Under the pieces are notes generated by a model. That model was not told the DNA's origin. It made no database searches and was given only the letters and a program-made list of their open reading frames with translations. Below, piece by piece: positions 32,852 to 33,020 of a DNA stretch of 64,000 nt. Source of the stretch: Chitinophagaceae bacterium (GTDB taxonomy: Bacteria; Bacteroidota; Bacteroidia; Chitinophagales; Chitinophagaceae); the NCBI GenBank assembly GCA_004028795.1, contig SAIW01000006.1, positions 613,541 through 677,540 of the forward strand. Reading direction: 5' to 3'. The stretch's first letter is position 1; each line of letters begins with the position of its first letter. The position numbers were made by a program, and so were the translations under genes.

Positions 32852-33020
32852 TGAATTCTACATTATGAGTGTAGTGCTCTACCACTGAGCTATCCTTTCA
32901 CATAAAGGAATGGGATTCGAACCCATGACACTTGTGTTGTTGCTCTGCCATTAAGCTATCCCAATTACTCGGGAAAGGGACTCGAACCCTTAACATACAA
33001 CTATGGAGGACTTATCCATA
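32852..33020 (-). other. Three tRNA-like modules without complete partners
   Basis: Module C is a Met(CAU)-like 5' two-thirds. Modules A and B are T-arm plus 3'-acceptor units (GGGTTCGAATCCC and GGGTTCGAGTCCC). Details in findings. Confidence 0.55.

Follow-up and report, generated by a model that had tools for sequence, protein, structure and literature searches.

Tandem, differently permuted tRNA-like units in a predicted structured RNA upstream of Band-7 and RtcB genes in Chitinophagaceae

Introduction

Among the bacterial RNAs that imitate transfer RNA (tRNA), those closest to the element described here are YrlA and a predicted "band 7-associated tRNA". YrlA RNAs are co-transcribed with rsr and rtcB, and yet they act as stable RNAs (Wang et al. 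2018, bioRxiv 10.1101/312249). The YrlA of M. smegmatis, with an acceptor stem of 7 base pairs (bp), is cleaved by RNase P and has CCA added (PMC4201824), and a 6-bp acceptor stem has been related by Chen et al. to the absence of RNase P cleavage (PMC4201824; bioRxiv 10.1101/312249). According to the summary of Burroughs and Aravind (2016) given in a later preprint, some bacterial RtcB genes adjoin a Band-7 gene and a predicted "band 7-associated tRNA" that resembles a real tRNA; in the same summary YrlA is also said to adjoin Band-7 occasionally, and the predictions on Band-7, YrlA and the band 7-associated tRNA are described as being without experimental validation (bioRxiv 10.1101/312249). 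Here we report a predicted RNA from a stretch of 64,000 nucleotides (nt), hereafter the window, of a Chitinophagaceae bacterium (GenBank assembly GCA_004028795.1, contig SAIW01000006.1, positions 613,541 to 677,540). Two permuted tRNA-like units are the core of this conserved structured RNA of about 560 nt, which would run from about 33150 to 32575 on the minus strand, and the whole is probably a non-coding RNA serving as the RNA cofactor of a Band-7(SPFH)-RtcB repair system, with the units as tandem permuted tRNA mimics.

Other RNAs offer further points of comparison. In Cyanidioschyzon merolae and some other algae and archaea, circularly permuted tRNA genes mature to chargeable tRNAs with conserved anticodons. 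The tRNA-like domain of transfer-messenger RNA (tmRNA), including the two-piece permuted tmRNAs, and the 3' tRNA-like structures of plant viruses possess a free CCA and are aminoacylated. GOLLD and ROOL are large, ornate bacterial RNAs often located beside tRNA genes.

Two permuted tRNA-like units

A sequence-only reading of the locus had distinguished three tRNA-like modules on the minus strand, A (32902-32966), B (32967-33020) and C (32852-32899), and all three are found there. Module C is composed of GAAAGGA, the D-arm GCTCAGTGGTAGAGC (32890-32876) and the anticodon arm CTACA-CTCATAA-TGTAG, with no T-arm after it; module A contains the D-arm GCTTAATGGCAGAGC (32956-32942), the T-arm ATGGG-TTCGAAT-CCCAT and then TCCTTT(A), whose TCCTTT pairs with the AAAGGA of module C over a 5-nt loop. 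In module B, the T-arm AAGGG-TTCGAGT-CCCTT and the strand TCCCGAG are as they had been given; the acceptor strand had also been said to have no 5' partner nearby, which turned out to be wrong, as it belongs to the 6-bp hairpin TCCCGA-GTAA-TTGGGA situated directly before the D-arm of module A. Because this partner is adjacent, the repeat unit consists of T-arm, closed acceptor hairpin and D-arm, and it is present twice. The tandem-unit pattern is far beyond chance.

The two units are permuted at different points. Unit 1 corresponds to a tRNA opened at the anticodon loop; it is closed by a helix of 4-5 bp between strands X and Y, equivalent to an anticodon stem, and is devoid of an anticodon loop. 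Unit 2 is opened in the variable-loop region and retains a complete anticodon arm, its variable loop not being joined to the anticodon stem. The form of a circularly permuted tRNA, recognized in the sequence-only reading, is right as the topology of each unit, in which the T-arm and the 3' acceptor strand come ahead of the 5' acceptor strand and the D-arm; a gene maturing to a working tRNA is effectively excluded, as discussed below.

Standard searches do not recover these units. ARAGORN folds no normal tRNA here, neither in the window nor at the equivalent RNA in any of the 59 loci where the program reported tRNAs. Rfam gives two partial tRNA matches at the permuted units, sub- or near-threshold (33.7 and 29.1 bits) and with either the T-arm or the anticodon arm missing. 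At a relaxed threshold, a partial YrlA match is obtained at 32930-32876 (36 bits, E 1.8e-5, model positions 27-81 of 114), spanning exactly the segment of T-arm, acceptor hairpin and D-arm.

Comparative evidence for the fold

Relatives of the neighbouring Band-7 protein were scanned in one genome per species, with 219 relatives confirmed, and the best 80 loci of the 219 were analysed. These 80 are all Chitinophagaceae-like, with Band-7 protein identities of 67-78%, and recent copies of a single element are excluded because the related loci stand at these identities. In nearly all of them two T-loops 57-69 nt apart are found on the same strand, 320-540 nt upstream of Band-7.

For 58 sequences containing both units, an ordinary MAFFT alignment was folded by RNAalifold, which independently returned the 5' hairpin, the T-arm, acceptor hairpin and D-arm of unit 1, and the T-arm, acceptor hairpin, D-arm and anticodon arm of unit 2, with compensatory changes in 35 of 44 pairs. 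A structure of 48 pairs in nine helices was then compared with shuffled partners (500 shuffles) and with slid partners. Standard pairs occupied 96.3% of the cells (78.2% shuffled, 36-49% slid), both sides had changed in 38 of the 48 pairs (26.4 shuffled, with none of the 500 shuffles reaching 38), and the covariation score was 0.526 (0.182 shuffled, at most 0.117 slid). Compensatory substitutions are present in all nine helices, and the many distinct pair types per position indicate repeated independent compensation. The acceptor hairpins are paired at 92-95%, against 57% for the pairing expected in normal order, between the strand before the unit 1 D-arm and the strand after the unit 2 T-arm. 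In unit 1, pairing of the X/Y helix reaches 83%, compared with 52 +/- 3% after partners have been swapped among species; A-U, C-G, G-C and U-A are all observed, and RNAalifold also recovered the helix on a second alignment. The CTGTTG of the 5' motif was considered as an alternative partner of strand Y; no covariation was apparent by eye, and strand X is the one that covaries.

The tertiary contacts of tRNA are also maintained. U8, A14, G18-G19 and the T-loop sequence are essentially invariant in both units; in the D-loops of unit 2, A14 is invariant and GG occurs in 57 of 58. The Levitt pair 15-48 covaries in unit 1 (G-C 44, A-U 8, other 6; p = 2.5e-6; A-U in the window) and in unit 2 (G-C 27, A-U 27, other 4; Fisher p = 5.5e-14), where position 48 comes from the linker. 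Since U8, A14, G18-G19, the T-loop and a covarying 15-48 pair are kept, each unit is expected to adopt an L shape; a free CCA end is absent from both, and they are therefore not chargeable. What the data show is an RNA that is folded and under selection, its two tRNA-shaped domains being uncharged. With the window left out, a covariance model made from 28 further species matched 32847-33006 of the minus strand over its full length (129.1 bits, E 5.5e-35); the genuine tandem tRNAs of the window score only 45-46 bits. The minimum free energy (MFE) fold of the window RNA has a z of -2.5 and recovers the acceptor hairpins, the D-arm and anticodon arm of unit 2 and the first pseudoknot stem, P1; because the two T-arms, which are alike, are wrongly paired to one another in this fold, it was not used as evidence for the T-arms.

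The anticodon loop of unit 2 combines a conserved frame (C32 in 39/56, U33 in 45/56, a purine at 37 in 53/56, A38 in 50/56) with a hypervariable triplet, 27 different triplets being found among the 58 species, none of them dominant. The CAU of the window is a singleton; as the triplet is not conserved, the locus is not the tRNA-Met locus that had been supposed. The D-arm of unit 2 alternates among species between class I-like and Leu-like (TGGCGGAA...) forms. Some species have only a domain of the unit 2 type (e.g., loci L009, L023 and L059), some have longer unit 2 acceptor hairpins, and Chitinophaga species keep unit 1 followed by other hairpins.

Two explanations bear directly on these data. 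The units could be genuine permuted tRNA genes, the acceptor loop being opened by RNase P or RNase Z with CCA addition, or the RNA passing through a circular intermediate, to give chargeable tRNAs. The halves are formally in permuted order, some species carry the longer unit 2 acceptor hairpins just mentioned, and RNase P cleavage with CCA addition is known for the M. smegmatis YrlA (PMC4201824). However, the acceptor stems of the window have 6 bp and loops of 4-5 nt, a length tied to no RNase P cleavage; unit 1 has no anticodon loop and the variable loop of unit 2 is not joined to its anticodon stem; and decoding would need a conserved triplet, which is not what the alignment contains. We regard this explanation as very improbable. 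Still less credible, to the point of being negligible, are degenerate remains, either tRNA pseudogene fragments or att-site scars from mobile elements repeatedly integrating and excising at a tRNA gene, the latter having been the more conservative interpretation of the sequence-only reading. A tRNA array does adjoin the locus and the gene content from Band-7 to RtcB varies by species, but compensatory substitutions occur in every helix, the tertiary pair covaries over 58 species, the position is fixed upstream of Band-7 in dozens of species, both acceptor strands have adjacent partners, and no integrase is found in the locus. Functional permuted tRNA genes and att-site scars are thus both effectively excluded.

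Architecture of the larger predicted RNA

The permuted units are embedded in further conserved elements, whose coordinates are collected in Table 1 together with the neighbouring genes and the elements of distant loci.

Table 1. Features of the permuted-unit RNA and its gene neighbourhood in the window, followed by tRNA-like elements upstream of distant Band-7 homologues (positions of the respective locus).
Feature	Sequence or content	Position	Strand	Evidence or remark
tRNA array	Pro(UGG), His, odd tRNA-like gene, Lys, Asn, Phe	34941..35435	-	ARAGORN, Rfam
AAA ATPase		34864-33695	-	Profile match
RNase H-like protein		33684-33169	-	PF04308
Conserved 5' part of RNA		33060..33167	-	MAFFT + RNAalifold, 75 loci
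Box in 5' part	AGTTCTTTAAAATATT, then variable hairpin	33167-33152	-	
Hairpin in 5' part	CTTGC-TTAACG-GCAAG	33127-33112	-	
Stretch and hairpin in 5' part	CAAACCAGG-like stretch; covarying 7-bp hairpin	within 33060..33167	-	
5' hairpin	GTGCAGA-C-GT-AGTA-AC-TA-TCTGTAT	33033..33057	-	Helix 1, 97.9% paired
Single-stranded motif, nearly invariant	CTGTATGCT(G/A)TTG	33026..33038	-	Invariant columns T28, A29, T30, T33, T36
Variable hairpin	ATGGA-TAAGTCC-TCCAT (window form)	33002..33020	-	MFE + alignment; sequence variable
Unit 1 strand X and 5-nt variable loop	GTTGT (tRNA positions 39-43), ATGTT (44-48)	32992..33001	-	Covariation, RNAalifold
Unit 1 T-arm	AAGGG-TTCGAGT-CCCTT	32975..32991	-	Helix 2: 100% paired, compensatory 3/5 pairs
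Unit 1 closed acceptor hairpin, 6 bp, GNRA-type loop	TCCCGA-GTAA-TTGGGA	32959..32974	-	Helix 3: 92.5% paired, compensatory 6/6
Unit 1 U8-A9, D-arm, A26, strand Y	D-arm GCTT-AATGGCA-GAGC; Y ACAAC (positions 27-31)	32936..32958	-	Helix 4
Linker	ACAAGTGTC, last base = unit 2 position 48	32927..32935	-	15/48 covariation
Unit 2 T-arm	ATGGG-TTCGAAT-CCCAT	32910..32926	-	Helix 5: 99.7% paired
Unit 2 closed acceptor hairpin	TCCTTT-ATGTG-AAAGGA	32893..32909	-	Helix 6: 94.5% paired, compensatory 5/5
Unit 2 U8-A9 and D-arm	GCTC-AGTGGTA-GAGC	32876..32892	-	Helix 7
Unit 2 anticodon arm	CTACA-CTCATAA-TGTAG	32858..32874	-	Helix 8: 99% paired, compensatory 5/5
3' H-type pseudoknot	P1 GAAG/CTTC, loop TACATCG, A-rich linker, GATG pairing with loop CATC	32821..32848	-	Helix 9 + complement test
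3' domain with long-range closing helix	Helix 32809-32791 / 32597-32579	32579..32809	-	RNAduplex energies
Band-7/SPFH "slipin" protein	365 amino acids (aa)	31452..32549	-	PF01145, E 1e-31
Orphan open reading frame (ORF) between Band-7 and RtcB	260 aa	30535-31317	-	ORF
RtcB RNA ligase		28896..30359	-	PF01139, E 2.4e-81
Photobacterium (L085)	Sigma-54 promoter, then two tandem normal-order tRNA-likes	3632-3769		Rfam tRNA 54 + 46 bits
Burkholderia (L084)	T-arm + normal-order tRNA-like	3179-3292		
Subdoligranulum (L083)	Two T-arms, closed hairpin, D-like arm; GCGTATGCC motif like that of Chitinophagaceae	about 3650-3760		
E. coli CP061233.1 (L081)	Sigma-54-type promoter TGGCACGCTTCTCGCA, T-arm TGGG-TTCGATT-CCCA, closed 7-bp hairpin; no D-arm	4680-4995		

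In the conserved 5' part, the 7-bp hairpin is 75-100% paired, with several pair types per position, over 75 loci, and the upper pair of the 5' hairpin that follows alternates between U-A (40) and C-G (18). The upstream motif of the Chitinophagaceae RNA, CTGTATGCTGTTG, is nearly invariant in the alignment.

Downstream of unit 2, the pseudoknot comprises a hairpin of 4-5 bp whose loop pairs with a following strand, in sets such as CACC/GGTG, CATC/GATG, CAGC/GCTG, CGCC/GGCG and GCCG/CGGC. At least 46 of the 58 sequences contain a perfect 4-nt complement, against 20.4 +/- 2.8 with shuffled partners, the count being a lower bound because the automatic parser mis-assigned several sequences, the window included. 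A preQ1-I riboswitch, which has the same H-type topology and an A-rich tail, was considered and rejected, as no Rfam match was obtained at E up to 10. The loops of the pseudoknot are presumably also too short for the known preQ1-I pocket.

The 3' domain, of 200-280 nt, is delimited by a closing helix of 15-22 bp whose sequence differs among species. Exact-match searches for this helix were too noisy, and RNAduplex energies were used instead: the mean is -31.9 kcal/mol for native partners versus -24.9 for shuffled ones (p = 6e-19). For the whole 3' domain, MAFFT and alifold give a weak consensus. In the window, the closing helix is followed by TAATTTTT and, about 30 nt on, by the ATG of Band-7. 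As separate observations, the 3' domain of the relatives includes further conserved motifs (e.g., CACCTGCAGGCAGG and CTTCCGTGATTATTGAATGG), and in that of the window the overlapping 3' segments GGCTTTATG and ACCGGCTT can each pair with CATAAAGCCGGT.

This arrangement raises the possibility that the RNA is a cis-acting leader, or damage sensor, of the Band-7-RtcB mRNA, in which binding or cutting of the tRNA-like domains would decide whether a terminator-like helix forms or transcription reads through; the binders or cutters might be anticodon nucleases, RtcB or modification enzymes acting on damaged tRNAs. The interval of about 30 nt leaves no obvious promoter room, a U run follows the 3' strand of the long-range helix in many loci, and the frame of the unit 2 anticodon loop is conserved. 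In addition, no RtcR-type regulator is seen in the locus, and proteobacterial relatives carry the RNA within the transcription unit, after a sigma-54 promoter and ahead of the slipin gene. On the other hand, no alternative (anti-terminator) pairing was identified, a closing helix spanning 200-280 nt is unusual for a terminator, and some loci have at least 100 extra nt with direct repeats before Band-7, which would give room for a separate promoter; moreover, YrlA is co-transcribed with rsr and rtcB and is nonetheless a stable RNA (bioRxiv 10.1101/312249). A leader is, in our judgement, a possibility worth keeping in mind, albeit an improbable one, and the RNA cofactor remains the reading we prefer.

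Gene neighbourhood and host chromosome

Along the minus strand the order is tRNA array, AAA ATPase, RNase H-like protein, permuted-unit RNA, Band-7, the 260-aa ORF and RtcB, the RNA being co-oriented with the Band-7-RtcB genes and immediately upstream of them. The Band-7 protein has no predicted membrane helix (maximum Kyte-Doolittle score 0.91) and is 100% identical to a protein of a Chitinophaga sp. metagenome-assembled genome. Among the 80 loci, RtcB lies downstream of Band-7 in 54, and the upstream neighbours include the RNase H-like protein in 56 and the AAA ATPase in 51. The 260-aa ORF has no match in Pfam, NCBIfam or PADLOC and no homologue in the 80 related loci, NCBIfam likewise giving no name for the RNase H-like protein; the interval from Band-7 to RtcB holds variable cargo among species. 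PADLOC found no known defence-system protein among the five neighbour proteins.

ARAGORN reports four tRNAs of the window array, at 34941-35354, and a fifth, at 35363-35435, comes from Rfam. In the related loci (L001-L080) arrays of up to 15 tRNAs occupy an equivalent position, about 2-4 kb upstream of Band-7. Their isoacceptors are chiefly Phe GAA, Asn GUU, Lys UUU, Gln UUG, His GUG, Arg ACG, Asp GUC and Ser GCU, with Met CAU, Ile GAU/UAU, Glu UUC and Tyr GUA also dominant, and we take these to be largely the ones attacked by known anticodon nucleases. Between tRNA-His and tRNA-Lys of the window, at 35174-35276 of the minus strand, lies a tRNA-like gene missed by ARAGORN and Rfam, with the acceptor GCGGTTT/AAATCGC, a D-arm-like TGT-AAGGGTAA-ACA, the T-arm TTTCAG-TTCGAGT-CTGAAA and a very long "anticodon" arm of about 46 nt (MFE z = -2.9). 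In the corresponding arrays of loci L001 and L047, ARAGORN gives odd tRNAs with a 4-nt anticodon (tcct).

The array is also relevant to a decoy, or competitive inhibitor, in which the tRNA-shaped domains would soak up tRNA-targeting toxins and protect tRNAs, alongside the array itself. What unit 2 offers for this is a complete anticodon arm whose loop frame is tRNA-like and whose triplet changes rapidly, and isoacceptors that we assume to be the classical targets of anticodon nucleases, namely Lys UUU, Gln UUG, Glu UUC, Asn/His/Asp/Tyr GUN and Arg ACG, are enriched in the neighbouring arrays. Competitive inhibition has been raised for YrlA (Hughes et al. 2020, PMC7790460), and a role as sponges has been proposed for array tRNAs (Santamaria-Gomez et al. 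2021, PMC8421152). Nevertheless, a decoy should keep the target anticodon of the nuclease, and 27 triplets are found with none dominant; unit 1 has no anticodon loop, a single unit is all that some species possess, and a single-copy RNA is a poor sponge unless very abundant. A decoy therefore seems to us unlikely as the role of this RNA, for which a cofactor of the repair system is still the preferred one.

Tandem direct repeats of the type ATCTGTG(T/G) (e.g., atctgtgtaaatctgtgtaaatctgtgt) stand between the closing helix and the Band-7 start in loci L011, L014 and L026 and are absent from the window. The TrcR regulon of Anabaena has comparable direct repeats, and those found here may serve as operators.

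The window is Chitinophagaceae chromosome, containing pheT, dnaB, RNase Y, purA, relA/spoT and PBP2/RodA as housekeeping genes as well as a CHU_C protein of type IX secretion (T9SS). A phage origin was rejected, as the window is chromosomal and megablast of the region versus phage records gave no match. Occurrence on viral contigs was likewise dismissed: a scan with the 5' motif produced a single match, due to chance, inside a coding sequence and without T-loops. Elsewhere in the window, an Rfam DUF805b RNA motif is found at 4586-4621 of the plus strand (42 bits, above the gathering score), just upstream of the ORF 4640-5653, and an unrelated row of a DUF5131 protein (PF07505), an ORF without Pfam match and a radical SAM protein occupies 41500-44257 of the minus strand.

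Relation to YrlA, band 7-associated tRNA and other RNAs

Unit 1 matches fully the order of YrlA, that is, T-arm, loop-closed acceptor stem, D-arm and a closing helix resembling an anticodon stem; unit 2 shares the order but ends in its own anticodon hairpin and has a different permutation point. The 6-bp acceptor stem as in Salmonella YrlA, the retained tertiary contacts of tRNA and the encoding in an operon with RtcB are further likenesses. The differences are nonetheless considerable. No Rsr/TROVE gene is present among the scanned ORFs of the window, the Ro-binding motif GNCGAAN0-1G occurs in only 12 of 79 loci and at scattered positions, and the pairing between 5' and 3' conserved regions that makes up the Ro-binding stem is not suggested by the sequences, as judged by inspection. 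The 36 bits of the window compare with a gathering score of 69 for RF02553, and at that threshold no YrlA match was obtained by Rfam in 11 related loci. Furthermore, the units are in tandem, and the embedding RNA has about 560 nt versus about 110 nt for YrlA.

With the band 7-associated tRNA, as far as its published summary describes it, the element shares a tRNA-like RNA gene beside Band-7/SPFH and RtcB, and a proposed role as RNA cofactor of a scaffold protein in RNA repair; it differs in that the band 7-associated tRNA strongly resembles an authentic tRNA, and the Chitinophagaceae RNA is permuted and invisible to ARAGORN. Rfam contains no family for the band 7-associated tRNA, and none covering any part of the RNA of about 560 nt. 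In function the window RNA would group with the Band-7-associated tRNA-like RNAs; in structure it goes with YrlA. No description of tandem, differently permuted units, a hypervariable anticodon and an architecture of about 560 nt was met with in the literature searched, in which Burroughs and Aravind (2016) is represented through its summary, and to that extent the element is a variant of the bacterial Y-RNA-like tRNA mimics that has not been reported before.

Upstream of distant Band-7 homologues, with 35-43% identity, the tRNA-like elements are diverse in connectivity (Table 1), with T-arms joined to a permuted unit in Subdoligranulum. The normal-order cloverleaves of Photobacterium and Burkholderia score 42-54 bits with the Rfam tRNA model. 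The E. coli element lies upstream of a pair of slipin and nucleotidyltransferase genes, between a yjbD-like DUF3811 gene and lysC; the region is found in 1,632 of 5,426 complete genomes, with no RefSeq feature annotated and no Rfam match. Motifs like the nearly invariant one of Chitinophagaceae, GCGTATGCCGGTC and GCGTATACCCGTC, are present in the Subdoligranulum and Photobacterium loci. A GCGTAT(G/A)CC motif upstream at distant Band-7 loci also recalls the invariant CTGTATGCTG of Chitinophagaceae.

As for the remaining RNAs, the algal and archaeal permuted tRNA genes are similar in encoding the cloverleaf with its 3' half first, and different in that the acceptor loop is here closed, one unit has no anticodon loop and the triplet of the other is unconserved. 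The tmRNA and viral mimics share the T-arm/D-arm elbow and the L shape for tRNA-binding proteins, together with a pseudoknot beside the tRNA-like part, but the window RNA has no free CCA end. Like GOLLD and ROOL, the element exceeds 500 nt, is multi-domain and conserved, and lies near tRNA genes; it has no Rfam match to either of them or to any other large RNA family, and it is linked to Band-7/RtcB and built with tRNA-like modules.

Proposed role and significance

As a cofactor, the RNA would be the partner of a soluble Band-7 oligomer and of RtcB. When tRNAs are damaged or translation is under stress, the tRNA-shaped domains would tether enzymes that recognise tRNA, or the damaged tRNAs themselves, to the repair complex or present them to it, in the manner of a Y RNA for Ro60; stability and a platform for protein binding would come from the flanking hairpins, the pseudoknot and the closing helix. 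In Anabaena, translational stress lifts the repression of rtcB together with that of a slipin gene, an AAA ATPase gene and a long tRNA array (PMC8421152, PMC10272220). The window array recalls the "L-arrays" of Anabaena, which are induced by stress under common regulation with rtcB, slipin and AAA ATPase, and by this analogy the Anabaena regulon would lend independent support to a common pathway.

Several points weigh against the cofactor reading. Binding to Band-7 and RtcB is deduced from gene order only; the species compared are related, and the shuffle statistics consequently overstate independence and are not true probabilities; the Ro-type partner that defines Y RNAs was not found in the ORFs of at least 330 aa of the 64-kb window nor in the shorter ORFs scanned beside the RNA, which were searched for TROVE/Ro60/Rsr domains; and, as Band-7 starts about 30 nt past the closing helix, the RNA may be an operon leader instead of a free RNA.

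A more ambitious proposal, which we find attractive and at the same time rather unlikely, is that this RNA represents a new class of large ribonucleoprotein or regulatory RNA acting as a "tripwire" for tRNA damage. The tRNA-targeting toxins against which the island defends would engage or cut the two tRNA-shaped domains, one of which has an anticodon loop that evolves fast, and RtcB would re-seal the cut domains. A signal through the pseudoknot and the long closing helix would then switch on the Band-7/RtcB genes, or else assemble a soluble SPFH cage round damaged tRNAs, in loose analogy to vault or Ro-Y RNA particles.

Whichever its role, the element has excellent comparative support; it is unannotated, not in Rfam, and of a kind of RNA that is poorly understood. 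The bacterial tRNA mimics linked to RNA repair, namely YrlA and the predicted Band-7-associated tRNA, have no established function. What the locus adds is an alignment, deep and rich in covariation, of an unannotated RNA that fuses two differently permuted tRNA-shaped domains in one molecule, and the parts of the locus match those of the Anabaena translational-stress regulon. As this RNA stands without Ro60 beside such regulon-like parts (a soluble SPFH protein, RtcB, an AAA ATPase, an RNase H-like protein and a tRNA array), it provides a compact, testable system for tRNA mimicry in RNA repair. A widespread RNA escapes both genome annotation and Rfam, its relative in E. coli being unannotated in 1,632 complete genomes, and "scrambled tRNA" signals near repair genes would deserve to be read as functional RNAs, not as debris.

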